From positions 19,688,150 through 19,752,149 of the forward strand of contig NC_134026.1 of assembly GCF_964204645.1 (NCBI RefSeq): a stretch of DNA of 64,000 nucleotides, written 5' to 3'. Of this stretch, positions 16,943 to 48,925 are shown one piece after another. The notes below the pieces were generated by a model that had not been told where the DNA came from, did no database searches, and worked only from the letters and a program-made list of their open reading frames with translations. This stretch comes from Tubulanus polymorphus. Lineage: Eukaryota > Animalia > Nemertea. A program made the position numbers and the translations under genes. The stretch's first letter is position 1. Each line of letters opens with the position of its first letter.

Positions 16943-17269
16943 CCTGATGTGCCACGAATTATTCCTCTCCCGGAGGGTGCTGCCACCTATGCAATCAAAA
17001 AATGATTGACAGTTAGTTAATTGCGTGAGAAACGCACGGGGTTTCGGAAACAAAACTTCTTCCTTTTGTTTAGCCAGAATTCCACGTATCGAAATAATTC
17101 CTCGACATTTTCATACAGTATTTACAGAGAAATTAATTTTTGAGTTAAAGACTAAAATGTTCATACCATTTTGTTCGATATGAAATTTACTTACGGCGCC
17201 CTCAGCGCTTCCGTACGTTTCCCAAAAATGGCAGCGTCCTGGCGATGACGTTTCGGAACGGATTTTGAC
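16943..17269. promoter_or_regulatory. Left part of the SLC35D/GIPC bidirectional promoter, split by the MULE insertion
   Basis: CpG-rich segment upstream of the SLC35D ATG with a YY1-like AAAATGGC (~17225) and half-CRE ATGACG (~17245). Removing the transposon leaves ~406 bp between the two divergent start codons. Confidence 0.55.
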
Positions 17270-17972
17270 GCAAAAGGTTGAAAGCCTGTTTTGGTCGATG
17301 GCGAGTGACGTCACTAGTACAAATTCCGAGCGGTTCGAATCCCACAATACGCCAAAATCACTACGGCCGCTCTGAGCGCACATCGCATTTCAACGTTGCC
17401 GTTTAATAATTGTAAAATAACTAATAATAGTTTAAGTTTTATAAGGGTTAGAAGTACATTGTATTTACTGCTAGTGTATGTATATATCATGTACGGTTGC
17501 GAGAAATCCCTGCCCTGGTTAAACAGTAAGTCCACTAAATCTTTAAATTTTAAGTTGTTTAATGAAACTATTATTGTTTTAAATTGTTAAAACTGCAAAC
17601 TATGGTTGTCGAAGATGCACCTTCTTCACATCCTTTGAAATCCTGGATAGCATCGCTGTCGGCAAAGACCTTCAGGTCTGTCTTCAACGGCACATCGCTT
17701 TGGAACAAGCGACTACTGTGTTATCAAATCTGAACTAGGTAAAAAAATGTTCCCCAAAAATAAAGACAAGTAAACGGATTAATTTGAGGTTTGAATGTTT
17801 TTGTTTATTTGTTGGTTCAAATCGAACCCTCGTCATCCTGATCTCCATAAATCTAAGAAAAGTATTCGCACACTTAAAACAATAAAATACGAGCAATAAG
17901 CAATAACATCAGACTGGAGTAAGTAACTTTACTTAATTCACAGATACAATCCTACACAAAACAATAGCTATT

Positions 17973-18212
17973 CAGTGGCGGATCCACCCCTCTATTTTTA
18001 CCGATGTAGCCGCAAATCTATGCGTTACTGAGTAAAAACCGAATGAAATCTTTCTATTAAGTAATGCTCAGAATGCACCTGCTTGCATCTATTTTTCCAA
18101 AAAATTTTTAGGAAGGGTCTTCGCGTTATCGGTGCTTGCTCTGGAATGGCTTACAGCCATCTGTTGTTGCTTTCATTTGCCCCCCCCCCTTCAAAATGCT
18201 GGATCCGCCCCT
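17973..18212. mobile_element. Short MITE relic (CAG(G/T)GGCGGATCC termini), nested in the MULE
   Basis: CAGTGGCGGATCCA at 17973 and TGGATCCGCCCCTG ending at 18212; related ends near 27810-28070 and ~6095. Confidence 0.55.
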
Positions 18213-18344
18213 GAGTGCAGACAAAATGATCGACAAAGACATACAGAACTCTAAAACAACAGTTAACAATTTAAGCAACGATAGACAAAACAGATAGCTG
18301 ATTACTTTACAAACCTGTTGTCAGAACCTTAATTATTTTTACAT

Positions 18345-18890
18345 GTACATACAGAGGACTGTTAACAATTCAACCAATGAAATTGCGATAGAGATACAGA
18401 ACATACAGCTTTAACAGTAAACAATGCAACCAATGAAATTGCGATAGAGATACAGAACATACAGCTTTAACAGTAAACCATGCAACCAATGAATTGCGAT
18501 TAACTAAGACCTACGAGCAATTATCAAGTTTGATAATTGCTCGTAGCTAAGACATACAGGACAAACAGGACTAACTTAATTGCGATAGACATACAGGACA
18601 TACAGGATTAACAGTAGACAATTCAACCAACGAATTGCGATTAACTAAGACATACAGGACTAAACCACAGGACATACAGGACTAACAGTAGACAATTCAA
18701 CAACCAATGAATTGCGATTAACTAAGACATACAGGACATACAGGACTAACTTAATTGCGATAGACATACAGGACTAACAGTAAACAATGCAACCAATGAA
18801 TTGCGATCGCGATCACAAAGACATACAGGACAAACAGGAATAAACCACAGTAAATTGCGATAAAAAAGACATACAGGACTAACTGCAGTA
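18345..18890. repeat. Modular subterminal minisatellite inside the MULE (CAACCAATGAATTGCGAT / ACATACAGGAC / TAACAGTA modules)
   Basis: About 9-10 imperfect units built from the same short modules. Confidence 0.85.
18504..18553. mobile_element. 36-bp palindromic insertion with 7-bp TSD (transposon footprint or micro-element)
   Basis: CTAAGAC|CTACGAGCAATTATCAA-GT-TTGATAATTGCTCGTAG|CTAAGAC. Neighbouring minisatellite units show the empty site TAACTAAGACATACAGG. Confidence 0.8.
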
Positions 18891-19661
18891 AATATATAGG
18901 GCCTTAGGAATGCAAAATTCATTCATTTTGTCATTTGTAAACATTCCACAACTTATTTCATTATGTCATTTCCAGTTTTCAAAGGGAATTTTCTTAACTT
19001 CAGATGCCTCGAGGACATAAACATATAGAAAGATCTGTCCCAAAAAAATGTCAAGTGTCTTTCATAGTGCAATGGGCCCTGGTTTCCACGTTTATATATC
19101 ACATATAAAATTCTACAGAAACAATCAATGAATAAGTGAAAATTTACGAATAACAAACAAGACATTCAAGCAGTTGAGTAAGTTAAAATGGGACCAATCT
19201 ATATATATTATATATGGATTATACAATTTAATCAGGGACAGCCTTGAACCGAGGTTGATGTGTCCATACACTCTCTTCATACACTCTCTGAACATGCATG
19301 TATGTATACTGCTGCCAATTGATGATAAGTCAAGGATGTTGAAGTTCTAGACATGGTCAGAATCATCCAGAGACATCGGCACGCATCACAATAACTGATG
19401 ATTTTGCAGTAACCTGTAACATAAAAAATCAAGCGGTAATCTATTCACAAAATATATTTTCCTGAAAGAAAAAACCTGAAATAGAGCACTATAAACACCA
19501 GTGCATATACATCGCTTCTTAACCTTATATATAATCGAGTAAATATATAGGTGACTAAGTGACGGTCATTATAGGCTTCTACGTTCACCATGGGAAATGA
19601 AAATATTTCTAATGTCAGGGATTCATTCGAAACCCGATCAATAATATTCTATACAAACTAT

Positions 19662-22600
19662 TTAGGAAATCGGGTCACAATGAAAACAAAACCACCTGAT
19701 ATGTTCAGGAGGAGCCTCATTGATTGGAGCACATTTCCAATGATACCATCTATGGCAATTATCACATTCAATTGAGAATGTGGACTTTTTCTTAGGATTA
19801 GCATTGCATTTTTTGTGGCAGACAGGGCAGGTTTCAGCAACTAACTGAGAAGGGGTTTTTTCAACTTTTGATGACAAAAGATTATCTAGTTTCAATTTTG
19901 CTAGGTTTTGGAGGCCTGCATTTCCAGGTTGATCTATAAGAATTTCTAATTCTTTTTCAGAATTGGAATTATTGATTTCTGTAATAGGAGAACTGTTGAG
20001 ATAATCATCTCTATTATTATAATCGATTACAATAGATTTTTTCTTATGATGATTATGTTCAATACGAATGTGCTTTTGAAGGAATGTTTCACTTGCATAT
20101 GAATTAATAACCCCATCTGCCCAACAAATAGCACATGAGATAGGTTTCAAAGATGAATGAGAAGTGGATATGTGCCTATCTAGTTCCCTGCGACATGAAC
20201 AAAGATATGGAGGATTTATTTTGTCTTTAATACAAAAGGAACAGACAATACTTTTTTCAAATAAAACAGACTTCGAGTCATTTTTAACAACTGGTATTGA
20301 CTTAATATCTTTTGGTTTGGTATCTTTTGATTTTTTTGGTAAGGATGATTTATTCTGACTTAAAATATCTGCTGAAAATTCGATATCATTGCCAGGATCT
20401 GGATCAGTGGAGTCTATGGTTTCAATTTCTGATATTTTAGCTTTTTTACCTAGTTTGATAGCAGCATTTTCAACCATAGCAGAAAAGGATACACCTCTGT
20501 TAGCAGGTCTAATTATCTTTCGCCCTCCGTGTCTTGCATTCTCAGCATCTTTAGGCATTGTAACCTTAGGGCAGTAAGGGTCTATCACTTCAAGTTCAGG
20601 AAGGTTTATGGCAACCTGATTGTCCTTGATTGGACCCTCAGCACGCCTATGAGCCATATTGTGAGGTTGTCGTTTGGCAGGTCGTCCGCTTATTAACTTA
20701 ATTCCACAGTGGCTTTCATTATGTAAAATACTTAGAATGTGCCCTTTCCGAGCAGCATTGATATCATTCGAGCTAGCAATGTGGGAATGATCTTTTAACT
20801 TATCAATGAGGGTAGATGAAACAGAAATATTTTGTCGAGTAAAATTGTAAGTTGGCAGAGGCTCCACAATGTGGAATTTATATGCATCAATTAAAGCCTT
20901 CGTTGTGGTTATATTGTTTTTTTGGGCAAAACAGGCAAAAAGATGTTTGCAAAAATATGGTTGTCCAATCATTATAAAAGCTTCACAAGTACATATACCT
21001 AGTTTCAAATTGATTAAATGGCAATTACCATCTACGTATGAAAGACAATTTTCAGGAACGATTGTAATAACGTAATTGAATAAGATACGACTGGATATTG
21101 AATCTAAATTTCCTATGTACCTTCGGCATTTTTTTGAAATGTCATATGAATGTTCCTCGGATATTGATACTTTATCGGGGAATCTTTCTTCTAAAACATC
21201 AAGCTGATTGAATGTATATTGAGTATCACCATTGAAAAAATTATCATTATCTTCTAACCTATTTAAGTTCTTTCGTGAAGAACTCTTCACAACAAACCAA
21301 TTAGTTTCTTCATCATATTTTAAAATCTCATTATTCTGTAATAAATCAAAGGCTCTTTTGCAACACTTTTCTATCTTTTCAAGGTGACGTATATTCTTAA
21401 CTCGTTGGTCAAGTTGCTTAAATTGGAGATTGTTCATATTTGTCGCTTTGATCTCATCATTAAAAACATTTTCAAACAGTAATCGTACAAAAGATGATAT
21501 CAGTTTATTTAGGTGTCCACTTAAGTAGACATCATCTATTTGTTTGAATTTGCGCTCAGTAATATTATCAGTTAATAGCAAAGGGTTATTTCTGTTAGAT
21601 TGGTCTGACTGATAAATTGATTCAGCATTGAATGCCCCAGACCAAATTTGGGAATTAAACCAATTCTTCTTTAGGTAATCAATAAATAATGTTTTTGTAT
21701 CTTGCGACATAAGGTCTAAAGAAATATCATTCTCAATAAAACTAATAAATGAATTGGCTATATCAGTTCTAGAGGAAGCATCCCATGATCTCATAATGCA
21801 TTTGAAACCAGTTTCTAGAGGCTTGCAAAATAAGCGAAGTTCTTGATTTTCATTCATGAAGCGACGAATACACTGCAGGACATGAAAATTACATAGTACT
21901 GATTTAAGATTATTGTCAGATGCTCCTTGCTTTAGACTTGCATCTTTATCATGTTGTACAAAAGGACAAAATCTAGATGTTGATGAACATGGCTTGATTC
22001 TGAAAAAACCATTGCCATCATTAAATATATAGAATTCAGATGGATGATTACATTTTTCGTCTTTACATGGTGTATTGGCTAGAACTAACTGGATGGTAGT
22101 TGCATGAGTAGCCCCCCCTTCATCACTACTAATTGATGCAGCAGCAATACGTCCTTCATTTTTGTTGTCTGCAAAAGTTACAAATGAAGTTTTGAATTTC
22201 CACGAATTGAAATCATGTTTCACGTCAATACCAATGACAGATTGTCCAAAGTTGGATAAATGTTCCAGAGAACGAGGATCAGAGAGAATAATGTGATAAT
22301 TACGTTTGAGTGTGGCATCCCCTCGTTGAAATAAAAGGACAGATTCATAGTTACCCTCTAATAATTTTTCAGTATTTCTCCAATCAGAACTTAGAATAGG
22401 TATTTCGTCTTGAGATTTCATATGTAATTTTATCGAAGATTTATCAATATATTTCAATCTATTTGAAATTTGATCTAGGGTATGGTCATGACCGGCGCCA
22501 TCATTTACATTTGATACATGAAGGTTATTGTGAGCATTGGTGGCAGAAAGAACCTTCATTGCTGTGGCTTTCATCATGACTCTATTTTCATCCCATCTAT

Positions 22601-25398
22601 CTCTAGTAGATAAATTAGGTCGCTTTTTAATTTGTAAAGGAATATTGTCATGATATTGACCATTAAGTGGTTTGCTGAAGATTCTCCACTTGGATAAATC
22701 AGTACTAAATAATACAAGTTTCGTTGCCCAATAACACATAAAATGAGGGTGAATTAATTTTTTTGGCTCAAACTGCTGCCTTAACTTCACAGGACGATCA
22801 CGTTTATTCTTCAGCTTATAGTTGTAACAGTTGGAACAAAGTGTTTCACCATCAGCATTTTTCCTCCATTTGTTAGACATGGTAATGGAGCAATGAATAC
22901 ATTGTTTATCATTTAAAACAACGTCAATTTGACATGAGGGACAATTAGTGATGTTACTGGACATATTCAACTTTGAAAGATAATATCCACATGATGATTT
23001 ACAAACTGAAGACTTTGACGAACATTTTATGAGCATTTCTGCAGCCACAAATTGAGAAGTATCCTCAACAATTGGCTCAATAAATTCAAATTTATTATCT
23101 AATCTATGGGTTTGCCAATTCTTTTTTAATGTTAAGGAAGCTTTCATCGTTGTCTGGTTACCAACAAATGAAGGCCGCACATTCTTATGCAGACGAACTG
23201 TTTTTGTAAAATCAAAAGTGAATCTATCGAAATAATATTTTGTGTCAGCACCAGTCATTACTTCCCCATTTTCAACCCATTCATCACTAAGTGGATTCTG
23301 GTTGTTGAGGTATTTCTTGATAGTGTCAATGGCTACCTGGTCATTTGTACCTTGGTCTGTACAATGAAAACTTTTATACTTCGTCTTACTGCCAGTTGAA
23401 TGAAAAGCAACTTCAAGATAATGCTTTCCTCTCCTGATGCGATGGGAGATAGTAGTTTTAGAACCATTAATATGGGAAGTTAATGGTTCAGCTGAATTTA
23501 GAGTTAATGAGGATTGAGGATTCAAAATTGAGGATGTAGATTCAGGTGTAGATTCATTATTCGAAATTGGTGTAGATTCAGGTGTAGATTTAATAGTCAA
23601 AATTGGTGCAGATTCACTATTCGAAATTGGTGTAGATTCATTAGTCAAAATTGGTGCAGATTCACTATTCGAAATTGGTGTTGATTCAGGTGTTGATTCA
23701 TTAGTCAAAATTGGTGCAGATTCACTATTTGAAATTGGTGTTGATTCATTAGTCAAAATTGCTGCAGATTCATAATTCGAAATTGGTGTAGATTCAAGTG
23801 TTGATTCATTATTCAAAATTGGTGTAGATTTAGATTTGGCTGTAGTTAAGACTGATTTGCTTTTTTTAGGGGCAATATAAGAGTCTGACATCTTTAATTC
23901 AGAACTAGCTAGTGTATTATTTGACTCAGTTGATCGTTTATGTCTCTGTCTGCGAGATAATCGTGATATCTTAGAGAAAGTAGTACTATTAGCAGTAGGT
24001 TGAGATGACTTTGAGAAGAGTTGAGTAATATCAATTAGATGTTTCATAAGCCAATTAATCAATATCAATCTAACAAAATCAGAATAGTTAGAAATGTTCT
24101 TAAGATAAGATAATTCATTGGGAGATGAAAATACACTTGAAATATCCTTTTCATAATAGGTTGCAATGCAAGCACCAATTAATGTAGCAGGGCCACAGAC
24201 AGATGAACATGATTGGAGTGGGTAATAACTAGTACAATTATTACTACATACATGCACTGAATTTTCAGTAACAAAATGAGGATCATGGAGGTGGATATAA
24301 ACAGGATCAGGGCAATTCAAACCTTTCAAAACAGATCTTAAATGATTTTTAAATTCCCTTGGACAATCCCATGCTAGTGTATCAGCATAACACAGTTTGT
24401 TACTTTTTGGGTAAAAAACTGCTAGTGCATAATGATTGGCAACAACATGTCCATAAGAATTTAGAAATACGAAATCGTTTTGGGTGCCAACATGCAGGAA
24501 AAAAATTAGTTTATCACAACTTATGAGTGGATTAGGACCGAATCTTTTATATAAATTTGAAACATATTTCTTAGCATCAAATGTAAGTGGCATCATAAAT
24601 GCATGAATATTACAGTACTGTTCATTTATCATAGATGCAAAAGCATTTAACACAGATCCTTCAAACCATTTTTGATTAGTCATCGTCTGAAGTTCTGATA
24701 CAGATACGCTATTATTATTACCAACTGGAAATTGTTGAGAGGGTTTTAAGGAAAAGAGCATATTTGAAAATGCTTGAATCTGTTCCCAATCGACTGAATC
24801 AGTGGGGCTTAAAGGCTTACTATTTACCCAAAGATTCATGGCAAAAAGATCTTGTTGTTTGGTTTTAGCATAATGTAAGAAAAGAAACCTATTAATCTGA
24901 TCAATAGAATAGCAGCCTGTATCGAGTCTCACATGGATATTAATGGAAGGGTCACGGACAATCCTTGACTGCATCTGTGCTTTTATGTCCTCCAACTGAT
25001 TTTTGTGGGGCATAGTGGGGGCATCATCAGCCAAATGACATGAATTAGACATGTCACAAATTCTGAATGACGTGACCTTTGATGGCATAACAGGAGGAAT
25101 TTTCAAAAACTGATAGTCATTGAGGCACATTTCTGTTGGATTGTAACTAAAATTTCTTCTACATACATGTTCATCATCAGAATCATTCTCATCACTATCA
25201 TCAATTATGATTGGTTCGATACCTCCACCACCTGTGATACTTAGCTGTTTTTTGTTTTCCATCCAGCTATCTTCCTGCATCTTTAATCTTTCTATCCTTT
25301 CTTTCGAACTATCTTCCTGCATCTTTTCTGCTTCCTCTATCGTTCCTTCCGAGAAATTGTCACAAGCCGCGTCCTTTCCTTCTTCCTCCATTGTCCGC
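19662..25398 (-). CDS. MULE transposase polyprotein, terminal exon (~1,911 aa): Ulp1/C48 protease, STP repeat, GATA ZnF, MULE DDE, SWIM, 2x C2H2, PHD
   Basis: Ulp1-like KWFEGSVLNAF...HYALAV...YADTL...LQSCSSVCG (~24170-24700); GATA CIHC-x17-CSNC (~22795-22901); DDE core IGIDVKH / QHDKD / LCNFH / TDNITE (~21550-22240); SWIM CTC...CKH (~20940-21000); two C2H2 (~20060-20245); PHD CPVC...CDNC..WYH.KC...WFCFHC (~19675-19830). Splice acceptor tttcag at 25399-25404. Confidence 0.9.
23535..23830 (-). repeat. Coding tandem repeat (ESTPISNSESAPILTN-like units) forming a linker in the transposase
   Basis: Repeated GATTCA...CGAAATTGGTG / TAGTCAAAATTGGTGCA units, about 6 copies, all frame-preserving. Confidence 0.85.
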
Positions 25399-25559
25399 CT
25401 GAAATACACATTATCAACTCACTTTTTTTAGACATATGAATAGATAGAGTATGAAATTACCCATATAGGCCTAACATAAAACATGGGTATCTCTGAGTCA
25501 TTTGCATTAAGTCATTTAGATTTGTAGGTACTAAATTAATTGAATTATGTTGTACTTAC

Positions 25560-27355
25560 ATTTCAGTATGGTTTAAACTAACATGGTCTAGAAGATCTTT
25601 CCAATTGGTGAATTCAACTCCGCAAAAACATGTCGAGTCAGCAGGATCCGTCTGTGGATGAATAACCTAATGTGGAAGAGCACATTAATCTGTTTTTGCT
25701 TCAACATCTAAGCAAAAATAACAAAAATGAACCCGCGTCTCGCAGAAAGGGCATCAAACTTACATGTTCCACTGACTTCCTTTTTCTGTTAAATCTTTTA
25801 GTATTGTGACAACTTCTATTGTAGCATCCCTGAATATGAAAACAAAGCTTTACAGCATAAATCATACCAATACCAATGAATTTCTATAATTTCATTTCGA
25901 GAAACATATTACTCACGTTCTTAGTCTGATAAAAAGGAGTAAATAATTGAGGCTTTAAACAAATAGCAACACCAGCCACATCAATTTTAGTCATGTACTG
26001 GAAAAAAAAGACAGATTTGTGCATGCACAGCCTTTAGGTAATTGTGAAATAAAAGTGACCAAACTAATATTAAATCATAAGTTCTTGAGATGATATGTAC
26101 CTGGTCGAATGTGAAAAAGGCTCTTTGATCTTCACAACAGAATTGTTTCCTTGTATGATGCGCAACGTCAAAACTGCTATACTGGATTGAAGGATACAAA
26201 AAACTGTTAAAATATATCTAACTTTATAAAGATAAATCACGTACAAATCACTTAGGAAAACAACTTTACCACTATTGTTGAATCATCCCATGCTCTTGCT
26301 TGATCATCCTTCAATTTGTTTTTTGCTATCAGCTATCAATATGATTCATTAATTCAATGCAAGGATTTTGAATAAAGTGGTTTCGTATTCAAGTTATAAA
26401 AACTAATTGCAAATCATTCATTTTCTAGGATATCAATGCTAAATGATTACCTTTCGTCGATGGACTGCTCTACTTCTTTGCATCTTTTCAATCTCATATG
26501 GAAAGTATTGAGGGCACCTGATTAAGAATCATTCATTATTTCCAGTACAATCATAAAATTTATGTAGTTTGCATACCTGGTAATTGGATAAAATAATGCA
26601 ATTCTACGTACATTTCATCTTCATTTTTCAATAGCAGTAGTTCCATTATCCTGTTATTTATGAACTGATTTCCCTTACGGCTGGGGTGTAACAAGTCAGT
26701 CCTAGATCACAAAATTTAGAAAAAAACAAGTTAGTTTAAATCGCGAAAAAATGCACATAACCTACTGGGCTTATTAAGATTAAACGATTACTTACGGTGA
26801 AAGGAGATCTCTTGAGAAGTGAAAATCAACGAACTTTACACCAAGTGTAAAGCATTCGCGGTGCAGCATTTCATTGTAATGAAATATTTTTGTGTCAGCA
26901 TCGAAACTTTAAAAAAGAAAGAAATTTAAAAATCATTACATCGATCATAAATATAGTACTTCAAGAAAAATCTATTCTTGATACTTACTCATCACATCGA
27001 GGAAAAAGAGCTGGTACAATGATGGTCCCAGTACATTTATAGAGCAACAATCGAATTAATTCAACGTGTCTTCGCAGAACAATCTCAAGCGGGACATCAC
27101 GCGTCATATTATTTGTTCCAACATGGACGATTAGTTGTTCCACATTCAGCATCTTCACCTTTTTCAATTCTGTAATATACAACTAATCAGTAACCCAATG
27201 AAAATGAACAATATAAATCAGTACTGAACCGAGAAATTACCTTCCATCAATGTTTCAATGGTTCCTCCGGGGCACACGATCCTTGTCCATTCAAATAAGC
27301 CTACACCATCTAGCCCAGCATACTTTAAAATGCTGTCTGCTACGAGACCAATACG
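25560..27355 (-). CDS. Upstream exons of the MULE gene: SGNH/GDSL hydrolase domain plus C2H2-type fingers
   Basis: Exons 27241-27355 (IGLVADSILK block I; CPGGTI block II), 26989-27169 (LIVHVGTNN block III), 26796-26906, 26612-26701 (DLLHPSRKG block V), 26451-26517, 26270-26332, 26101-26181, 25917-25997, 25764-25829, 25560-25666 (CFCG..F....L..H....H). All are GT-AG and in frame with the terminal exon. A candidate start micro-exon ending in ATG|GT lies at 28292-28310. Confidence 0.75.
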
Positions 27356-29548
27356 CTACAAAAAAGATTATTTGTCAGTCTCAGGCCAATATCACAGGGA
27401 GGTGTGAGAGAGCACACTGGTTACTGTAAGACCCTACTACATGCAAAAGAAGTGACACATATATGTATATCAATGTGATAGAATTGATTGAAAAAATTGT
27501 GCATAATAGTAGCTAGTGCCCAAAAATAGAACACAGTGTTATTGAAGTGAAAATTTCTAAAATCCTCTGAAGCGGTGCTTATTTGGTAGCTACATGGGTA
27601 TTCTAATTGAATAAGCATAAAGATAAGCGTGCACACACAGTAGCCTATGCATAAACAAGGGCCAGTTTCACCTTCACCTAAAAGTCCTGCAGTGTGAAGA
27701 CTAACTTGTTCACCTAAACCACCTCTACCAGGCTGTGGAAGGCCTAACATCAGGCACTAAATTAAAAGATTCCTCTAAATCAAATTATCTATAAACATCC
27801 TCTTAATTGCAGGCAGACTGATTCAGGGAGGGGTGCAGCCCAAAATAGGGCATACATATCAGTATCATATATAATTAAAAATCAAAAGGGCACCAGATCA
27901 TCAGAAAACATAATACCTATATTTTGGAAGTAGGCCTACAGAGAACATGTTTTGGAATATAAGCTTTTTAAAAATACTTGTTGATATTTTTAATTTTTCC
28001 TTTAAATTTCATTGCGACTTAAAAGTTTTAAGGGGTGTACACCCCTGTATACTCTCCTGATCTGCCCCTGAATTGCCACTTAACAAAATTTCTCAGCTTA
28101 ATTGTTGGCTAACTAGCTCAGTGAAACTGGGACCAGACCTAATGCATACACCCTCAGTGGCCAGGGCCAGGATTAAACAGTTAGGCTACGTATATAAATA
28201 AAGGAATGAAAAGTACTTATCCTGAAATTGGTTAGGCTATCTATCTGCAACAAGAAATACATTTTCATTGACTCTGAATACAGGGAACTACCATTCTTCT
28301 GTTTCGAGGCCTTAAAATTTATTGTTTATTTTTTGTTGCTGGATTTGGAATGGTTGTTGGAATATTTAAGGCCTAGTAGGTGGTGACTGTGTACGGGCAA
28401 CATAGGCCTATACCCAGTGGCATGGCAATGGCATGCCACTGGGTACCCACTACTGCACTATAGTATACTGCCTACGGCTACTGCGACTGGTGGTTCGGTT
28501 GGCAGAAATTACTTTTTAACATGGGGGGGGGGGAGGGGGGAAGTAAGCGTGGATGAAGACAAATTAATTTAGCCGAGTAAGTAGCAAGCAAGTAAAGTAG
28601 TGGCAGTACAGTAGGCCTAGCGACAATGTGAGTGTGGTGGTAACGTGGCCGTGGTGGCAATAACAAGACTCCAAAACTGGCAAAAGCCAAAATTAAAAAG
28701 CCCTGCCGCCGCGCGGTCGCGACGCCTCGCCTGCACCACCGTGTAGGGTAACTCCACGTAATTTCGGAAGACCACGTAATTTCGGAAGTTTTCTTCTACG
28801 GCCTCTCAGCAGTCGCGTAGAGGGAATACCTATTCGGACGAGCTTAAATTTGAAAAAGGGGAGGTAGGTTGGTATTTCCTGGGAATTCCACGGAAATCCG
28901 CGCCGTTTTGATGACGTAGTACGCATTTCTTCCCGGCACACGAAACCAGCGAAGCAGGAGATAAAAATCGGTCATGTAAGTACATTATTGATTGCCCCAT
29001 TTTTACGGCATTTCGCGGCCAGCTGTTATGTAAACACTACTAAGAAGTTCTAGGAAGTAAAAAGTTTGTTTATAAACATTCATTCGCTATTGGAATACGG
29101 TCATTGATGAAATATCAGCGATTTTTAGAAACTCGCTCGCCTACACATAATTTCGGATATCGTATACCCGGTTATTCTGGCTCGTTCACGTAATTTCGGA
29201 AGTTCCGAATTTATGTATAGATGGTATTTGTGTGTGTTTTCTCGGTAGTCTATCATCAAACAGGCCTTTTTCTGAGATAACTGTCACAAAAGAGTGCATA
29301 CTGAAAACAAATGCAAATTGATTCATCATTTTAGCCCCAGAGCCTAGGCCTATAACCTAGTCTCCATAACACAGTTATCAGTAGGCCTAAATTATGAAAA
29401 TGCCATTCTGAGATCAGGTTGTAACTAATAACATGTGATGATATTTACTAAGGAAAATAATTAAGGCTTATTTATAAAAGAAAATGAATTCATTTTATTA
29501 TTATTTTTATAATCAACATGATATTTACAATGTTTTTTATTTTTAAGT

Positions 29549-32500
29549 ATGTCAAAAGTGTATCGGCGTTGGACAGAAGTGCAAATGGGTGAAGCTGTTG
29601 AGGCTGTTCAGAATGGGATGTCAATATTATCGGCAGCAAAAAACTTTGGCGTACCAAAATCAACATTACATGACCGAATAAGTGGGAAAATTCCTGCAGG
29701 AAGGAAACTAGGTCGACCGACGAATCTGTCTGAGGCAGATGAATCAAAACTTGCGGATTTCGCGAAAAACCGTGCAGACCTCGGTTACGGTTTTTCAAAG
29801 GGAAATCTATTGAAATATGCGGGTGATCTCGCCTTAAAAAGGGGGACACCATTTAAACAGGTAGGCCAACGATTTTCACTAAAAGGTTGTTGTTTATCCC
29901 TTATAATTAATACTGGTATATATATTTTACTTTTAGATTATCCCGAGTGACCAGTTCTGGGCTGGCTTTAAAACTAGAAACCCCACTGTTGCACTCCGAA
30001 AGCCAGAGGGCACTGCGGCAATCCGACATCAGTGCATGAATGTTAAGAAGGTTGGAATGTTCTTTAGATCGGCCACAAAAGTATTGCTAAATGCTCAACC
30101 GATGCATATTTGGAATCTCGATGAAACTGGCGTTCAGTTTTCTCATGTCCCCGGAAAAATTGTTGCACGGTAGGCTTTGAACTAAATTAGCCTATCATTT
30201 AAATACTTCAACTGTTGGTCTATAAATAGCCCTTATCAAACCCAAGTTATTAAGCCCAGCAATATTCTAATGAGTTGTTGAAGTATTTTTAATTTCCGAC
30301 TATCAGCAATCATCCAGATACAGAAACTCAATACCACAGTCATAAAACAACAGATTTAGGAATGAACGTTATAACGATGAAAATTTTATTTTCAAAACTC
30401 TTATTTACAGAAAAGGGAGCAAGTATGTTCAATCTCGAATCAGCGGCAATCGCGAAACAGTTACGATCATGGCATGTGGAAATGCTGCTGGGCAGATGCT
30501 GGCCCCTAACGTTATTTTTAAGGGCAAGACGGCAGCATCATTACTCTCAGTTGACACAATGAACGCACCGGCAGGTACGACAGTTTCTGTATCGGAGAGT
30601 GGTTGGACGAAACAGGTAATTAGTTGTCAGTCACATTTTGAATCAGGCTCCTGAAGTGAAAAGCATTGTCAAATTTCATGTATTCATGATTTCAACAGGG
30701 AATTGCAACGATTTGGTTTAAGAAAAATTTTTTACCTGCTATTGGAGCGGCTCGTCCACAGATTTTGATATCCGATGGACATAACAGCCACAATTTTCTT
30801 GAATTGGTCGAGCTGGCAAGAGAAAATGGAGTAACACTGTTAGAATTACCAGAACATACCTCACATTGGTTGCAACCTTTAGATCGGTAAACACACTTCT
30901 TACAGATTTTATTAAAGAATACATCTTCCAATGAAATTAGACCTCAACTGACTAATTAATGTTTCACTTTCTTTGAAGATCATGCTTTAAGACATTGAAA
31001 GCATCATGGAATCGCCTATGTTTGAATTTTCATAACGAAAATCCGGGACGTATAGTGAACAAAAGTTGTTTCTTTGAGATCTTCAGACCAACATGGCTCA
31101 GTATAACCCCGGAGAACCTTATAAATGGTTTTCGAGCATGTGGTCTTTTTCCATTCAATCCCGAGATCATTCCCAAGGAAGCTTTTTTACCATCAAGCAC
31201 AAGAGTTGCTGATGTGGTGAGTTACTGAATAATAAGTAACCCGTATTGCCCTTAATTGAGGTTAACTGTACCTACATGTTTTTTTTTATAATGGGTTATA
31301 GGTATCAGATCCTACAATTGAAACGATGCAAGATCCATTTTCAGGATTATCGAAGGTATTTTTCTCGTAAAACTTGCACAAAAATCTAAAATATATCTAA
31401 GAGAACCTAGTTCCATATATATTATCAAATGTAAAGATGAAAAAAAAAAATTTTCTTCACATTACTTTTTACTTAGGAATCTGCATCTAATGTATTGACA
31501 ACAGTTGAAAAACCATTTCGTGAGGTGTGAATAGTGATTTAATTTCACTTCAACTTTTTTATGATTAATTTAATTTGTTTAGATTGTTTTTGGACTAATG
31601 ACCTGTTCGAGTGTTTGTTGCATTGTGTGTTACAGTTTCTAACCTTTTTCATGATCATTGATTTTTTCAGTCTCTCAAGTCCAAGCACAATATATCCTTT
31701 TCAAAATGATAATTGCAGATTTTATTGATGATTTCAAATGGATGAGATATTTTAATTTGTGAATTGTTTTATAATCTTCTCAATCAGTGGTTGACCATAT
31801 TATTTTGTAGACACTGCCTATAACTATCGATGGTCATTCCATTGCCTTAAAGGCAATGGAATCAGCCATTTCCTCGGAAATGAAGAAAAAATTTGAAGAA
31901 CGATACACCGAAGGCTGTGACTTGACTAATGATGCACTGTATTCAGCATGGAAAATTTTGAAAACTAAATCATCAGCTGAAGTTATCGATAGCTTCCCGA
32001 TCGAAAATAACTCATCCCCAGGTAAGAGTTAAGATCATTTTTAAAATAATGATAATACTTATTCGCCATGTAAATATGCAGTATAAATAATATATAATTA
32101 CAAACAAATTGCATATACTTACTGATTAATTTTGATGTACTTAGCTGATCCCGACAATGATGTGCTGGATTATCCCGTACTGATGCCAACTGAAAAGAAA
32201 AGAAAACGCGATGATAAGCGTTATTTCATTCTAACTGCGGATGATGCATATGCAAATGCGGTTTCAAAACAGAAGTTGAAAGAACAAAAAGAAAAGGAAA
32301 AACTAGAAAGAAGGAAAAAGAAATGTTTGACAACGGTAAGTTTAAGAACAGTTCTACGATTCATATCAAACGGTGAAAAACACACATCATAAAGAAATTA
32401 ATTCAATAATTAATAAAAACTCTTGCAGGCTTCAACAAGACCACAAAATGGAACTTGCTCCATTAATCCTGTAAGTTGAAAAAGATCTCTTGAAATGAGC

Positions 32501-33286
32501 AAATTTAATGAAAATAATATTCATACTTTGTATTCCTTTATTGTTCAGGCTCCATCAAGACCAGACAAGGAAAAATTAGCCGTAGTTCATGTGAGTAAAA
32601 AAATATGTTATATGTGTTCACTTTCGTCAGTTTATTTGTAATATGAGTAACTGAGGTACCCGGTAACCGGTAGGCTAAAATTATATATAAGTTTATTGAA
32701 CAAAAATTAAACCGTTTAATTAAAATTTCATATTGAGAATGGCTATAATGTGTAATTCTGAATTTCAGGATCCTGTGCCTGAGACAAGTGGTGTCAACAT
32801 GGTTTACGAAATCAACATAAGGTAAATAACTTGCTGCGCTTCTAAATATAAAATATAAATATCTAGTCACTAGTGATGAATAATTTATTTGTACCGGGGT
32901 ACTTACTTTGTAGTGAAGGTTCATATATTGCCCTTTATCAGGAAGGTGAGAAGCGCAGGAAGCACTTATACTTTGGAGTGGTATGTATTAATCGGCTGAA
33001 TTATTTTATCTGAAAGGAAAAATACAATTCTCCTGTGATTGTTATGTTTAACTGCTTGCAGATTCTAGAGATATTGGACTTCGGAGAAGTAATATCCGTT
33101 CAGTTTCTTGAACAACACTGCAAGAAAAATTTATTCGTTTGGCCCGATGTGGATATTATCGAAGAGCATCCCGTTGAGAATGTACTGAACAACTTGAAAC
33201 CGCCTGAGGTGGTAAATACGAGGATGCAGATGGCATTTCAAGTTGATGAATTTTCAAAGACTTGCGATTTGTTCGCTTGCATGTAA
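29549..33286 (+). CDS. pogo-type transposase (HTH_psq + CENP-B/Tc5 HTH + DDE_1) split into ~14-15 exons
   Basis: Exon 29549-29860 HTH_psq ([36 protein letters not shown]); 29937-30169 IWNLDETG; 30411-30615 [10 protein letters not shown]...PNVIFKGK...SGW; 30699-30886 SDGHNSH...[13 protein letters not shown] (35 residues between D2 and D3); 30979-31216 [12 protein letters not shown]. The small downstream exons to the stop at 33286 are less certain. Confidence 0.88.
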
Positions 33287-33344
33287 TAGGCTTACTACGT
33301 TTTGTTACGTAGAGAGGCCTTAAAGTTGTATTGCTATTGTATTG

Positions 33345-33555
33345 TATATACGTGTGTGCGTGTGCGTGTATCTATGTATGTGTGTATGTATTTATGTATG
33401 TGTGTATGTATTTATGTATGCGTGTATGTAGTTACCAAGTATTTATGTATATATTTATGTATGTGTGTATGTATGTATGTATTTACCAAGTATTTATGTA
33501 TGTGTGTATGTATTTATGTATGTATGTATGTGTATATATGTAGGCCTATGTATGT
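33345..33555. repeat. (TATG)n/(TG)n compound microsatellite in the pogo 3' region
   Basis: Directly visible low-complexity repeat. Confidence 0.9.
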
Positions 33556-34608
33556 TTGTTTTTTGTTACTCTTTTTGTTACTCATCTAGTCTTAAAAATG
33601 TTTATAAATAGTGCAATAAAAATTTATTACTTTCTGTTACGCCTTTTAGGCCTACATTACATGTTAGTTAATCAGTTTATTACATGTACCTTCTCGACGG
33701 TTGCTGCATTTCTAACGGTCTTCCTTTTATCTTGGTGAATTGGGATTACCATATCCACCATCTAGTAGGCTGTAGAAATTCATACAATTGCTGGAAATTC
33801 CACTCGGATAAAAAAAATATTTATGGGATTCGAACCCAAATGGTGTCTTGTCCCTAGATGTTTCTGATCTAACCAGCTGTTACTAAATGCTGCCACCCCT
33901 GTAGAAGCAATTAGTATAACCCAAATACGTTCTAGCCTAGTTTCATAGAACGCATACACAAAAATAACGAATATATGCATTTCCGAATTTATGTTGACTA
34001 TTTCCGAAATTACGTAACCCGGGCTTCCGAAATTATGTTGTCTCTATAAATGTCTCATACTGGTAAGTTATTTTAATGGATATATTTCAAATCGATTCTG
34101 GAGTAATATTTGGAAGCAGAAATATCAGGCTGTAAAAATATCCACCTTCCAACGGCATTTGTTCATGTCGAAAATCATCCGTCAAAACAGCGCATCCGAA
34201 AATACCTTCCGAAATTACGTGGAGTTACCCTACGATCCTCGCGGCGTTCACCAGTGTTACCCAGTGAGTTTTTTATAATCTTGCAATCTACCTCTTTTTT
34301 CAAACCAATATTCCCACCAACTGGTCCGGAGACAAGCTTAACACGTTCGGAAAACATGATTCACAATCTTTTAATCAACAGCCAGCAAGAATACACTTGA
34401 CAGAAAATTCAAATTCAGCGGTTAACCGTTAAAAGTGAGTTGTTTAGCTGTGGGAGTAACAAAAAGGCGATCTTGATGACGTCACTAGCCATCGACCAAA
34501 ACAGGCTTTCAACCTTTTGCGATTTTGACAAATAAAATCGTTTTCTGGCGCGATTTCGATAGAATTTACCGACTTAGGAACCTCTCGTGGTCGAGTAGTT
34601 TGTTAAGA

Positions 34609-37600
34609 ATGTCGTTATTCGGAAAGAGGAAGGGCAAGAAGAAAGATTCGCCGCTTCAGGAACAACCGCCGTCTATGATGGACGGCGAATATGGCACCAC
34701 ACCCCAAAATCACCAGCAACAACAACAGCAACACGCTAATGGGTCTGCATCATCAGCAGCCGCGACAGGAGCAGCAGCAGAAGGCGACATGAACAAGGCA
34801 AGGCCAAAATTCCAGTTCCACTGCCAATTGGCGCAGGGCAGTCCGACCGGTATTATTAGCGGATTCACAAATGTTAAAGAACTCTATTTGAAGATTTCTG
34901 AATGTTACGGAATCGATGTGAAAATGGTAAGCATACTCCATGCCGATGAACAGGTTTACTTCCTTGTTTGTTTCTTGGAAAAATATGTATTTCTTTAATT
35001 TGATTCATTGACAAATATAAATGGTGTAGTTGGCCTAATAATAGCCTATTCATTATCAATCATGTATTCATCCATTCCATGCAGTAAAAGTGGTAGAACT
35101 TTTGGTATGAACTGCCGTACTCTTTAAGCCTGTTTCCATAGACTGTTGATATGACTGCAAGTAGAAACCCTCTTGTCCGGATCAGTCTTCTTTCACTTTC
35201 AATGAAGCCTAATCTGGACCATGAAAGTCTGATTCCATTGACTCTTATAGACTACTTTTACAATCCATTGTCTCCAGATGAGTCCAATTTCGTCCATTGA
35301 TCCAGATATTACTCTCAGCCCACCTATAAGCCTAACTTAAATAAATGTGAAATAGTGTTAAACCTGATTGGCATTCAGGAATTTGCGTCTCAGGAAATTC
35401 ACACGAAAAATCCTCATTATCATACGTAGCCTAATACTAATAGCTCATTGCCAGTTGATTTCTATGTAGGCCTATTACAAGTTTGTTATTCTGTAGTAAA
35501 CTCCAGGGTCCCTACAGGTCCTTGATTCCTTGTAAACCCCAATCTAAAAGAATATTTTTCAAGGTCCTTGTCGAATAGGCCTACCCTTTGATTTGAGTGA
35601 AGTGTCCAAAAGTCCTAGAAAACTCCTTGAATTTTGAGAATGGGAATTGGCAATCGGAAATTTAGGAAATTCACGCTGTAGGCAAACTTGTTCCTGTGTT
35701 AGTTTGTGTCTTTCACTGATTCTTTACTCAAAATCTTAGAAAAATATCCGGGTTCTTTCACTTGCGGGTTTGGATAGAATTTGGCATGCGGTTCTGTCAT
35801 TTTCATAGAGCCTAACAAATACTTGGGAATTTCATATAGGACGATGGTTATTTCTGTACAAAATTATGTAGTTCATCCAAAGCTGATGGGTGCAACTCCC
35901 ACCGCAACTGTTCTCGTGTAGACGAAGAAAAGAGCCAGGGAGTGGATTCGGGTGATTTTAGAGTAATGGGTGGCAGATTCAGGTGGTTCGAGTGCTAATG
36001 GGTTAATGAGGATTTCTCCTTTTCCTGAGCCCAGACAGTTACTGTAAAGTATAATGGTCCCGTTTGTCGACATCAGTTAACCGCCTATGTTACTGTACCA
36101 TTTGGAAAATATGTGTTAACGTGAAAAATCGGTAGAATTGGTATTTTAATGTGAAAAAGCGTGAAGAAAACCATGTGCAAAATGTGGTGTGCGAACTATC
36201 TAGGGTTCATCAATCCTTGCTGCCACTGCCGGTCCAGTCTTCTGTGACACGAGGTCGTTTCATCCGATGAGTAGATATCCGAGAATCAATCATATTGAGC
36301 ACTGTCTTCTGTGGCAGGGGTTCATTCATACCATGTGCGAAATCGAGTGTAATTTCATGAATCGGCCTTACGTGTCAGTTTTCATCAATTCAGCAGAAGC
36401 TGGTTTATAAAATGGGCCTTTTAGCTAACTACCATGGTAACAATGCTGATCAAAACCACGAAGCCTTTGTCATTGAAATTAAGTATTCATATTGATTATT
36501 ACGAAAATTCGTAATAGTTTCTACCTAATTCGATTTGTTGATTCAGCTAGAATAACAATGTTTCATAAGCCTAATAATAGCTTCACCATCTCATTCAGCT
36601 TCACCCCCATGGTCCTTTCTGAATATTCTTCAGACTGTGGAGATAGCCTATGTTCTTCAAATCACGTTGTAAAAAAGAGTTGTATTGACAAAGTAAACAG
36701 ATTGTTGGTTTCAATTGCCCTCAATCATGTGAAGCTATCCAACAAATAGGGTCTGAATTTCTGAAAATCATTCCATAAACACGGAGAACAGTGGCCGCGA
36801 GTTTTAGCATCAACTCAGATTTTCCGTGGCATGGAAACTTCGTGTTTGGTTTCTTGATGCTGTTTTGCCTGTCAAAACCGTACCTTAATCCAACTGAATG
36901 CAGCCCCTCGTACAATCAACAATTCATTTTGGAATAGATGACACTCATATACAACACATCAAGATGCTTGTGTATTAGATACATGTGTCTCGGCGCTACC
37001 GTCATAAGTTTGACGTGTGCGGATGTTTATTGATCGGTTAAATTTAGATCGAAATATAGCAATAAAAAGCAGTGACTATATATTGTTGGAGCGATTCAAG
37101 GTTCTAGACGTAGGTGCTTTGGGAATGGTTCCTCCGTCAGTCCTATCTGTGAGCTGGTAGACCTTTCTTCGTACTATCCACCTGTCGTTAAGGCCTGCGG
37201 TTTATCCTGGAGCAAGATCTGAGGGTGTTGCCAAATATTTTTAAAGAGTAATTAATGAGAAAAGAAGCAGTGCCGTTTTGACCCATTAGGCCTGCGGGAT
37301 TTCTAACAAAATTGTGCATTTTTATAAAAAAATGCCCTTTTATGTTTTATTTCTTTTTCAACAAAATAATATTTTGCCCTTTTTGAAAAAAAACCCTTCA
37401 GTTCAATGGACACTCAAAATTTCGAGGGTCTTACTGAAGTCTTGTAAGCCTGCTTAGAGCTAGTGTCAGTCATAGATAGTGTTAGGCTAAATTAGAACGT
37501 TCAGTTCGTCAGGAGATACATGTATTTCATTTAGACAGGCGTGGCCACACGCAGTCTTGTGGGTCTCTTACGATATTCTCAGATACTGCTGCGAGTTTTT

Positions 37601-48619: not shown

Positions 48620-48925
48620 GGGGCCGGTTCCATAGTCGAGTGATCTTAAATCTTAAGACTGTTCTTTAAAGTTGTTAGATGGGCTATAGAACCGAGAAGG
48701 TCTGTCTTAGACTGGTCTTAAGTCTAAGCCATGACATCGGCACCAGTCCCTGAATCTTAAGACTAGTCCTAAGCCGTTAGGTTGGCTATAGAACTAAGAA
48801 TGACGGTTGTAGATTGGTCTTAAGGCTGAGCCATGACTTTGGAACCAGCTACTGGGTCTTAAGACTAGTCTTAAGTTGTTAGATCGGCTATAGAACTAAG
48901 AATAATGGTCTTTGACTGGTCTAAC
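48620..48925. repeat. About 3 tandem ~108-bp units of a TCTTAAGAC-rich hairpin repeat downstream of GIPC
   Basis: Repeated TCTTAAGACT...GTTAG.T.GGCTATAGAAC...GACTGGTCT(T)AAG units. Confidence 0.7.

Follow-up and report, generated by a model that had tools for sequence, protein, structure and literature searches.

A likely autonomous and recently multiplied MULE transposon in Tubulanus polymorphus with predicted Ulp1-type protease, GATA-finger and PHD-finger domains and a splice-attachable SGNH module

The window (that is, the whole 64,000-nucleotide stretch of Tubulanus polymorphus DNA analyzed here) contains a Mutator-like element (MULE) that has likely multiplied recently and is likely autonomous. 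In our preferred reading, to which we assign a probability of roughly 0.6, its predicted Ulp1-type protease and its GATA and PHD fingers would strip silencing marks and steer the element to promoters, and an SGNH hydrolase, likely captured recently, can be attached to the transposase by splicing. The coordinates of all features are collected in Table 1.

A sequence-only reading of the window had proposed a MULE bounded by 44-bp terminal inverted repeats (TIRs) plus a 9-bp target-site duplication (TSD), and both can be recovered: the TIRs pair with one mismatch, and the TSD copies are identical (chance approximately 6e-6 at the composition of the window). These lengths fall within the 14–500 bp reported for MULE TIRs and the 8–11 bp given for MULE TSDs (PMC6446971). 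The element had also been called a giant of 17.3 kb, a span that is correct when an intact 5.5-kb pogo element is counted; the MULE proper measures 11.8 kb (17,251 − 5,487 = 11,764 bp), and at either size an autonomous element would exceed the 1.4–10 kb listed for arthropod MULEs (PMC13359780). The nested element is unrelated to the MULE and went unmentioned in that reading; its TA duplication, short TIRs, HTH_psq and DDE_1 domains and DDxD residues place it in the pogo group (Tc1/mariner), the DD35D spacing being counted on the predicted protein. The window copy is inserted 80 bp upstream of the ATG of a host GIPC-family gene, and the gene on the left flank has no match in Pfam or the PDB. 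The CpG observed/expected ratio is 0.98 across the whole window; CpG at the insertion site is, therefore, uninformative.

Near-identical annotated copies occur at 18 or more loci in T. polymorphus; 18 can be named, on at least 8 contigs (counted from proteins), of which 3 are full-length and 15 are partial and retain the 5′ part. Full-length copies differ from one another by 0 to 3 amino acids, which supports the youth that had been proposed for the family. One full-length locus, on a 244-kb contig, may be a haplotype duplicate. The near-perfect TIRs and exact TSD, the distribution of mostly truncated loci over several contigs, and the near-identity of the full-length copies all argue against a domesticated host gene or a segmental duplication in place of a mobile family. 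We regard such an origin as highly improbable, even though crab orthologues look domesticated and the ends were seen for the window copy alone, the other loci being known from protein records.

The transposase gene combines a terminal exon of 5,737 nt without a stop with ten upstream GT-AG exons joined in frame across introns of 71–161 nt. Both features had been read from the DNA, and the splice chain is matched exactly by T. polymorphus RefSeq models, with 0 mismatches in 2,196 aa to P0007 (LOC141900736/LOC141906750 isoform X1) and 3 aa differences at a third locus. The start of the gene had to be revised. The ATG micro-exon proposed earlier, which would give 2,233 aa, is in frame on paper, yet, among 17 Tubulanus records spanning the SGNH region, none starts with it. 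By contrast, the initial 22 aa of RefSeq P0032 (LOC141904359, another copy) are encoded exactly on the far side of the pogo element; this is most likely the first coding exon, with a predicted product of 2,254 aa. The pogo insertion has widened intron 1 of the window copy from 1.4 to 6.9 kb, which is the likely reason why the annotated transcripts of this copy start below the esterase serine.

The gene has two tandem acceptors 5 nt apart. Acceptor 26181 keeps the SGNH–transposase fusion, and acceptor 26176 leads to two codons and a stop, resulting (with exon 1) in an SGNH-only protein of 233 aa; RefSeq P0009, P0028, and P0035 terminate in the latter manner as free SGNH proteins. The X2 isoforms in RefSeq are 1,995 aa long. 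Two candidates were dropped: an alternative donor at 26577, which brings a stop in exon 7 and is used by none of the RefSeq records examined, and a resemblance of exons 6–11 to the N-terminus of P0006 in a multiple alignment (score 31 versus a shuffle mean of 33.6).

Table 1. Features of the MULE, the nested pogo element and the flanking gene (window positions; aa numbering of the 2,254-aa model)
Feature	Position	Strand	Basis
Left TSD, 9 bp	17261..17269	.	Sequence identical to 34521-34529
Left TIR, 44 bp	17270..17313	+	Single mismatch versus right TIR
Minisatellite-like repeats, 56-77 bp units, 3′ of transposase gene	18364..18898	.	Sequence
Exon 12, terminal, 5,737 nt	19662..25398	-	No stop inside; agrees with RefSeq P0007
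C-terminal PHD finger, model aa 2200-2250	19677..19829	-	Pfam PHD 24.1 bits versus cutoff 24
Two C2H2-like fingers, aa 2062-2124	20055..20243	-	Pattern; own HMM in 17/19 full-length relatives
SWIM finger CxC-x11-CxH, aa 1812-1828	20943..20993	-	Pattern; Pfam SWIM weak in relatives
DDE catalytic core, D1401, D1493, C1512xxH1515, W1595, E1624	21483..22250	-	Conservation in relatives; Atlas neighbours
Putative insert-type WRKY-GCM1 DNA-binding domain, aa 1048-1262; insert = CxxC pair + GATA finger	22641..23285	-	Conserved C..C..W..H pattern compared with the description in PMC1702500
GATA-type finger C-x2-C-x17-C-x2-C, aa 1176-1200	22827..22901	-	GATA1 E 1.3e-12; Pfam GATA E 0.003, below cutoff
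Small unnamed domain, single copy here, at least 2 copies in many relatives	23289..23450	-	Comparison with relatives
Ser/Thr/Pro-rich tandem repeat linker, in frame	23545..23830	-	Repeat analysis
Ulp1/SENP-like (clan CE) cysteine protease, H665, D682, Q738, C744	24018..24737	-	Foldseek; residues
Exon 11, with N-terminal C2H2-like finger	25560..25666	-	Splice chain; finger pattern
Exons 6-10, linker	26517-26451, 26332-26270, 26181-26101, 25997-25917, 25829-25764	-	Splice chain
Tandem acceptors 5 nt apart	26174..26181	-	Sequence; endings of RefSeq P0009, P0028, P0035
Exons 2-5, SGNH hydrolase	27355-27241, 27169-26989, 26906-26796, 26701-26612	-	Pfam, Atlas, residues
Alternative first exon	27672..27750	-	RefSeq model P0015 of another copy; in frame through acceptor 27339
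ATG micro-exon of the sequence-only reading, in frame, unsupported	28292..28310	-	0/17 records
pogo/Tigger-type transposon, intact, 5,485 bp in length, with perfect TIRs of 25 bp and a TA duplication	28746..34230	+	Sequence; Pfam
pogo gene, 14 predicted exons, 686 aa, DD35D	29549-33286	+	HTH_psq E 1e-12, DDE_1 E 1.4e-7 (Pfam)
Exon 1 (most likely), coding portion of 22 aa, 120 bp inside right TIR	34292..34357	-	Exact match to first 22 aa of RefSeq P0032
Right TIR, 44 bp	34477..34520	-	Single mismatch versus left TIR
Right TSD, 9 bp	34521..34529	.	Sequence identical to 17261-17269
Host GIPC-family gene, first coding exon, flanking	34609..34926	+	Pfam GIPC1_GH1 E 9e-13

MULE catalytic cores are described as having a (C/D)xxH motif 15–45 aa past the second Asp and a Trp ahead of the Glu (PMC5499845). 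Here, 19 aa separate the Cys of CxxH from the preceding second Asp, and the D-D-CxxH-W-E spacing fits that description. A SWIM finger (CxC..CxH) follows the core in 18/18 rows shown, and the top Atlas matches for the core are named MULE transposase (0.95 and 0.94). Together with the TSD, these features sustain both the MULE identity and the DDE domain claimed from the sequence, without a direct match of Pfam MULE (PF10551) to the window's own protein. Among 22 aligned relatives at E ≤ 0.1, two match MULE and five the ZSWIM RNaseH-like profile, and P0130, a distant member (family profile E 7e-16), passes the Pfam MULE cutoff (34.8 versus 27.6).

One might instead place the transposase in another SWIM/CxxH superfamily (e.g., Zisupton/KDZ, hAT, or a Rehavkus-like outgroup) outside the MULEs proper. 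The missing direct Pfam match would fit this placement, as would a Cys-rich addition of approximately 45 residues between the first and second Asp, a tree (its rows include no named reference MULEs) that sets the clade apart from Pfam-MULE-matching rows with support of 99/98, and the fact that Rehavkus is also listed with a 9-bp TSD, a PHD finger, and a 3′ minisatellite. We nevertheless consider it quite improbable, given the Atlas neighbours, the transitive Pfam MULE and ZSWIM RNaseH matches, the 9-bp TSD, and an order of putative WRKY-insert, DDE, and SWIM as in the MULEs of PMC1702500. Structure prediction contributed little: an AlphaFold model of a 799-aa core, built on a 4-sequence alignment, reached a pLDDT of 43, and this poor model had no Foldseek match at E ≤ 0.001, neither to a transposase nor to a WRKY fold, and only generic helical bundles in VIA-align (best Z 7.2), with no evidence for a new fold. 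A profile from 22 DDE-region sequences found one chance match in the PDB (E 2.1).

The GATA, C2H2, and PHD fingers named in the sequence-only reading are all supported (Table 1). The GATA finger has the expected cysteine spacing plus a basic tail, and it lies within a putative WRKY-GCM1 region whose Cys/Trp/His pattern fits, though the model (pLDDT 43) is too poor for a fold match. Compared with GATA1, it carries Lys for Leu and Ser for Asn at positions that we take to be the base contacts for WGATAR; judged from these residues, recognition of a GATA site by the finger is improbable. The PHD finger, present in 10/19 full-length relatives, has the TAF3 PHD as its best PDB sequence match (E 2.2e-9), with Ser at the position where the TAF3 finger has a Met next to its conserved Trp. 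That Met is presumably part of the methyl-lysine cage.

The Ulp1 protease, also proposed earlier, is supported through fold and residues. Foldseek gave 22 matches at E ≤ 0.001 for the protease model (pLDDT 54), the top rows among the matches listed all being SENP/Ulp1/NEDP1 (Ulp1 2hkp, E 2.2e-5, TM to target 0.53), and the His-Asp-Cys triad with its oxyanion Gln is present in every limpet and Tubulanus row displayed, as well as in P0005, P0006, and P0036. Pfam Peptidase_C48 does not match the window protein, and the family profile reaches yeast Ulp1 at E 0.009 only. It is conceivable, but in our view unlikely, that this domain is a self-processing protease splitting the product into esterase, protease, and transposase, and not a deSUMOylase acting against host silencing. 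Such processing has been proposed for OTU-bearing MULE proteins (PMC1702500), the protease is flanked by long low-complexity linkers, di-Gly sites (aa 399-402) fall between the N-terminal portion and the protease domain, and clan CE includes viral processing proteases (lower rows of the Foldseek list). However, the best structural matches are SUMO/NEDD8 proteases, the domain is retained with an intact Cys in DDE-less relatives (e.g., P0070 and P0078), and relatives with short N-termini would have little to release.

The SGNH domain, too, was correctly recognized: Pfam Lipase_GDSL_2 (PF13472) matches above its cutoff of 32.9 (P0009 39.2, P0032 35.0), an Atlas search agrees, and blocks I, II, III, and V are present in the window DNA (S30, G53, N80, D160, and H163), with Ala where Gly is usual in block I. 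The serine motif is found in 4/17 Tubulanus records covering the region, each from a partial copy, and in neither of the two full-length X1 proteins; in the window DNA, the serine is in frame via exon 1. The module has weak sequence matches to ZfL2-1 ORF1p, at E 0.013, and to Oskar OSK, at E 0.002. Outside Tubulanus, it is present in 0/166 records, and word-based searches, which are weak, found relatives in 0/662 longer candidates and in 2/158 of similar length, both Tubulanus copies. This absence is weak evidence since the gene calls in the assemblies of many relatives probably ignore introns. The esterase is likely a recently captured, young layer. The single self-contained polyprotein proposed earlier consists of two layers, a wider core and a Tubulanus-only SGNH part that is also modelled as a separate short protein.

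The esterase may be passenger cargo, a host- or LINE-derived gene caught in the 5′ end and retained through the youth of the family, with the fusion a useless by-product of splicing; we give this somewhat less than even odds. Gene capture is known for MULEs (PMC6446971), the module is absent from the non-Tubulanus records, the serine is missing in 13/17 records, free-standing forms exist, GC3 is 0.40 in the SGNH exons versus 0.26 in the core, and an intron-rich SGNH part precedes a core in one exon. Yet all five residues are intact, one frame is held across eleven introns into the transposase and is followed by RefSeq models from several loci, LINE ORF1p and fish Helitrons are further places where SGNH enzymes recur, and the absence in relatives carries the caveat given above.

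By sequence comparison, the Ulp1–GATA-in-WRKY/GCM–DDE–SWIM–C2H2–(PHD) core belongs to an older, wider clade that includes limpet and crustacean members; Ulp1, WRKY, DDE, and SWIM occur together in 19/166 non-Tubulanus records. Limpet relatives are present in several copies that are 99.4–99.9% identical, and the core is, therefore, mobile in a second phylum. Crab versions have lost the Ulp1 Cys, the second Asp, CxxH, and the Trp, and these members are catalytically dead and probably domesticated. At the DNA level, relatives were found at two short, distant loci in metagenome contigs, too short for TIRs, and at none in viral contigs.

Under the preferred reading, the TIRs would be bound by the putative WRKY-GCM1-type domain and the GATA finger inserted in it, and the DDE core would cut both ends via hairpins on the flanking DNA and join these ends to target DNA at a stagger of 9 bp, as expected from the family and from Muta1. 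SUMO takes part in piRNA/heterochromatin silencing (PMC10363806), and the predicted protease may free the transposase, or silencing factors bound to element chromatin, of SUMO (or NEDD8). The PHD finger may recognize histone H3 tails of active promoters; insertions of maize Mu are tightly placed at Pol II start sites (PMC7337890), and the promoter preference suggested here comes from a single insertion (n = 1), plant Mu also targeting start sites. Exon 1 with acceptor 26181 would yield the 2,254-aa fusion; acceptor 26176 would yield the free 233-aa esterase, with the 1,995-aa transposase then starting from the exon 9 Met.

A more far-reaching version is speculative, and we consider it unlikely. 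It would give this undescribed animal MULE clade a machine for counter-defence and targeting on one chain (a deSUMOylase, an end binder augmented by the GATA finger, and a TAF3-like promoter reader), to which the ribbon worm added a working SGNH enzyme under a 5-nt splice switch, tying the transposase to membranes or germline RNA like LINE ORF1 esterases or Oskar OSK, and from which crabs domesticated an enzyme-dead chromatin protein. Why SUMO/ubiquitin proteases are frequent in transposons is a question raised in PMC2836005, and the clade offers a clean test set, with copies that are intact and near-identical within both a nemertean and a limpet, dead crab versions, and DDE-less protease keepers. 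The PHD finger, as a candidate promoter reader carried by a Mutator transposase, is a lead on how these elements find start sites. The association of SGNH domains with mobile elements, known to date for LINEs, Helitrons, and rotifer retroelements, would be widened by one on a cut-and-paste transposase.

The architecture had not been recognized from described families. This is true in part: Ulp1 and PHD domains on MULE transposases are published, and we found no report in the literature of a GATA finger inserted in a MULE domain or of an SGNH domain in a MULE. Ulp1-bearing Mutator elements are described from hydra, lancelet, Arabidopsis, maize, rice, melon, and grape (PMC2836005, PMC2528002), those of hydra and lancelet being compared here by description only. 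Ginger1 likewise has a C48-type protease on the same chain as a DDE transposase, once with a PHD finger (PMC2836005, PMC2528002), but its protease is C-terminal, whereas that of Tubulanus lies N-terminally, has diverged too far for a Pfam C48 match, and is conserved in three phyla. Rehavkus resembles our element in its 9-bp TSD, TIR of 26–400 bp, one ORF, PHD finger, and minisatellite near the 3′ end; SWIM, GATA, and SGNH are absent from its table entry (PMC6446971), and it is set apart by this description only. Intact SGNH domains within transposons are found in ZfL2-1 ORF1p (PMC3905857) and in texim of fish Helitrons (PMC4021074), the latter also containing introns, but these reside in a retrotransposon and a rolling-circle element, respectively, separate from the transposase, whereas splicing can join the Tubulanus SGNH to a cut-and-paste transposase. 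The Aedes aegypti element Muta1, our model for the cleavage chemistry, shares the DDE, (C/D)xxH, Trp before Glu, and a long TSD, but at 504 aa (1,512-bp coding sequence) has no accessory enzymes as described (PMC5499845). The insert-type WRKY-GCM1 MULEs of Babu et al. 2006 (PMC1702500) share the order of DNA-binding domain, DDE, and SWIM, as well as a Trp conserved in the final strand, a Glu following strand 3, and a His following strand 5, and their Ciona and C. elegans members have a C-terminal PHD and additional classic fingers. The Tubulanus protein differs in lacking the second His of the HxH pair, in its N-terminal Ulp1 and SGNH domains and predicted length of 2,254 aa, and in an insert of approximately 95 aa with a GATA finger, compared with the 20–70 aa, or the Zn ribbon of GCM1, described there.

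The element is a real Mutator-like transposon (MULE), bounded, as the sequence-only reading held, by identical 9-bp target-site duplications (TSDs) and by 44-bp terminal inverted repeats (TIRs) with one mismatch. The proposed terminal exon is free of stops, and the chain of ten exons joined in frame recurs in a RefSeq protein, P0007 (isoform X1 of LOC141900736 and LOC141906750 of Tubulanus polymorphus), with no mismatches over its 2,196 aa. A search of GT-AG boundaries around the ten hand-picked exons gave 48 chains free of stops, the top-scoring one encoding 2,232 aa; since the exons were picked partly by frame, this search is circular by itself, and the independent check is the identity to P0007. 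At the inner end of both TIRs there is a TGACGTCA palindrome, which we take to be CRE-like.

Features of the element and of its surroundings (window positions)
Feature	Position	Strand	Observation
MULE	17261-34529	- (gene)	
TSD copies	17261-17269; 34521-34529		
Terminal exon	25398-19662	-	5,737 nt without a stop
First exon of P0032	34357-34292	-	Beyond the pogo element, 120 bp inside the right TIR
Alternative acceptors	26181; 26176	-	5 nt apart
Nested pogo	28746-34230	+ (gene)	Perfect 25-bp TIRs, TA on either side
Palindrome-ended short stretches	~27810-28070 (MULE intron 1); 17970-18215 (MULE 3' region)		By eye, look like miniature inverted-repeat insertions
Left host gene	Starts at 16942	-	Likely 5' untranslated exon to ~17240
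Inverted repeat pair	55004-57153		36 nt, 97% complementary, arms separated by 2,078 nt; probably marks a further small DNA transposon
Overlapping stop-free frames	60980-63019; 61714-62913	+; -	679 aa; 399 aa; GC-rich stretch; no Pfam match
Long-range inverted/direct repeat pairs	45169-55510; 49443-57967		45 nt, 87%; 94 nt, 83%; likely dispersed miniature elements

Its size should be read with care. The ends do lie 17.3 kb apart, but the MULE alone is smaller, at 11,764 bp after subtraction of the pogo and one TA. This pogo is an intact, intron-rich transposon within MULE intron 1, which measures 6,936 nt with it and 1,449 nt without it. Its gene has 14 predicted exons (13 introns) and encodes a stop-free DD35D protein of 686 aa with Pfam matches to HTH_psq (E 1e-12) and DDE_1 (E 1.4e-7); a 16-bp motif of its TIR occurs seven times near its ends.

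The start of the gene most likely differs from that first proposed. The ATG micro-exon at 28292-28310 is in frame, yet it begins none of the 17 Tubulanus records covering the region. The first 22 residues of P0032 (LOC141904359, a partial copy in RefSeq) are instead encoded exactly by an exon close to the right TIR, followed in P0032 by the exon at 27355, and the 12-exon model built on it encodes 2,254 aa (numbering used hereafter). Full-length annotated proteins begin at Met59, downstream of the SGNH serine S30, and the serine motif is found in 4/17 Tubulanus records, each from a partial copy; the pogo in intron 1 may be the cause of these low annotated starts. Use of acceptor 26181 retains the fusion, and use of 26176 adds two codons and then a stop, which is how the RefSeq proteins P0009, P0028, and P0035 terminate. 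X2 isoforms, 1,995 aa long and starting in exon 9, are also annotated at the full-length loci and presumably stem from acceptor 26176. Taken together, the dual acceptors, these protein endings, and the X2 isoforms indicate that the esterase can be free or fused.

Cluster look-ups placed copies at 18 named loci on at least eight contigs, three full-length and 15 partial, in searches biased toward 5' pieces. Two full-length proteins are identical and the third differs at 3 aa; the partial copies are nearly identical over their overlapping parts. One full-length locus, on a 244-kb contig, could be a haplotype duplicate. The element was thought to be young, and the near-identity of proteins at 18 loci, known from protein records, bears this out.

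Domain assignments were upheld to different degrees. The SGNH domain (aa 23-183) passes the Pfam Lipase_GDSL_2 cutoff in P0009 and P0032, and S30, G53, N80, D160, and H163 are all intact; it weakly matches Oskar OSK (E 0.002) and ZfL2-1 ORF1p (E 0.013), and its Atlas neighbours are GDSL proteins of roughly 200 aa, mostly eukaryotic. The Ulp1-like domain (aa 564-803) has no Pfam match, but its predicted fold (pLDDT 54) resembles Ulp1, SENP2, and NEDP1 (22 structural matches at E<=0.001, the best of them at E 2.2e-5), and the catalytic residues H665, D682, Q738, and C744 are present. At aa 1176-1200 the GATA finger, which matches GATA1 with E 1.3e-12, falls between the two conserved Cys of a putative insert-type WRKY-GCM1 domain, as judged by reading the residue pattern against the family description in PMC1702500. 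The DDE motif is complete (D1401, D1493, C1512xxH, W1595, E1624), although Pfam MULE is not matched directly; the two best Atlas clusters for the core are named MULE transposase (0.95 and 0.94; the second is 66% PF10551), and a distant relative, P0130, passes the Pfam MULE cutoff. SWIM, two C2H2-like fingers, and the PHD follow the core, and the PHD claim holds, with TAF3 its best match among solved structures (E 2.2e-9).

The insertion holds two divergent host genes 17 kb apart (window 16942-34609). On the plus strand, a GIPC-family gene (Pfam E 9e-13) has its ATG 80 bp downstream of the right TSD. The left gene has no Pfam or PDB match; it is presumably an SLC35D-type sugar-nucleotide transporter, a membrane protein. 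The flanking genes start divergently, which gives this single insertion site the look of a divergent promoter. In maize, Mu shows strong enrichment at Pol II start sites (PMC7337890).

A word search returned five clusters among 6,971 candidates, and a profile search 51 proteins at E<=1e-30. Named hosts (10/150 matches looked up) include the limpet Patella caerulea, the mantis shrimp Oratosquilla, the crabs Scylla and Portunus, and the prawn Palaemon; the limpet has eight locus tags with full-length proteins, in subgroups 99.4-99.9% identical. The domain HMMs were cut from a five-sequence alignment, so P0003-P0006 match them by construction. Ulp1, WRKY, DDE, and SWIM occur together in 19/166 non-Tubulanus records (nine from the limpet), accompanied by the GATA part in 18, the C2H2 pair in 17, and the PHD in 10. 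The SGNH domain was matched in none of the 166, among which the ENA, JGI, and Logan gene calls are probably intron-blind and would therefore miss spliced 5' exons. In a midpoint-rooted DDE tree of 36/47 rows (11 near-duplicates dropped), built without named references, the clade is separated from Pfam-MULE-matching rows with support 99/98.

Some relatives have lost catalytic residues. The crab members (P0039 and P0183-P0186, from Scylla, Portunus, and one ENA record; 87-95% mutually identical) keep GATA, SWIM, and C2H2, but their protease Cys is replaced, as are the second Asp, CxxH, and Trp of the DDE core, which makes a domesticated gene likely. Mantis-shrimp P0037 has lost the second Asp and retains the protease Cys. 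Nine records without DDE or SWIM (P0053, P0054, P0060, P0062, P0065, P0066, P0070, P0076, and P0078; one from Palaemon) retain WRKY/GATA and the C2H2 pair, with Ulp1 in seven, arranged as (Ulp1)-(small domain, up to at least seven copies)-WRKY/GATA-C2H2x2; the repeated domain has no Pfam name. These are candidate transposase-derived transcription factors. The ENA record P0041 carries two tandem Ulp1-like domains, the first degenerate at its N-terminal Trp, and P0061, probably a gene-model fusion, joins a LINE-type ORF2 (endonuclease, RT, RNase H) to a fragment of the clade's DNA-binding region.

The anatomy, the copies, and the intact catalytic residues are observed directly; the mechanism is predicted. 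By analogy with Aedes aegypti Muta1, described with hairpin excision and DDE joining (PMC5499845), the DDE core would excise the element via hairpins on flanking DNA and then join it to the target. The WRKY/GATA module may bind the TIRs, the PHD may read the H3 tail, and the protease could strip SUMO or NEDD8, countering SUMO-dependent silencing (for SUMO in silencing, see PMC10363806). That the protease is conserved in three phyla, and lost in crabs along with the DDE residues, speaks for a role in transposition. As for the SGNH module, it might be cargo, a tentative reading that we hold somewhat short of even odds; its role is the least certain part of the model.

The architecture had seemed unlike any described family, which is true of part of it. 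Among the literature matches listed, it is undescribed, and the clade is apparently so too, though Repbase, Dfam, subscription papers, or supplements could hold a member. Neither GATA nor SGNH appears among the ~50 MULE groups of Table 1 in PMC6446971; "GATA", "protease", and "peptidase" have no occurrences in the main text of PMC13359780, and passages from PMC9569675, PMC11417382, and bioRxiv 10.64898/2026.02.11.705288 contain nothing on this architecture. Ulp1, however, has been reported from Mutator elements in hydra, lancelet, and plants, and Ginger1 carries it alongside a PHD (PMC2836005, PMC2528002); the PHD is reported on MULE transposases of Ciona and C. elegans (PMC1702500) and in Rehavkus (PMC6446971, Table 1). 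SGNH/GDSL domains are reported in LINE ORF1p (PMC3905857), fish Helitrons (PMC4021074), and rotifer Terminons (PMC6431247). What appears new in the clade is the GATA finger inside the DNA-binding domain together with the N-terminal protease, and the SGNH domain is likely a lineage-specific addition in Tubulanus.
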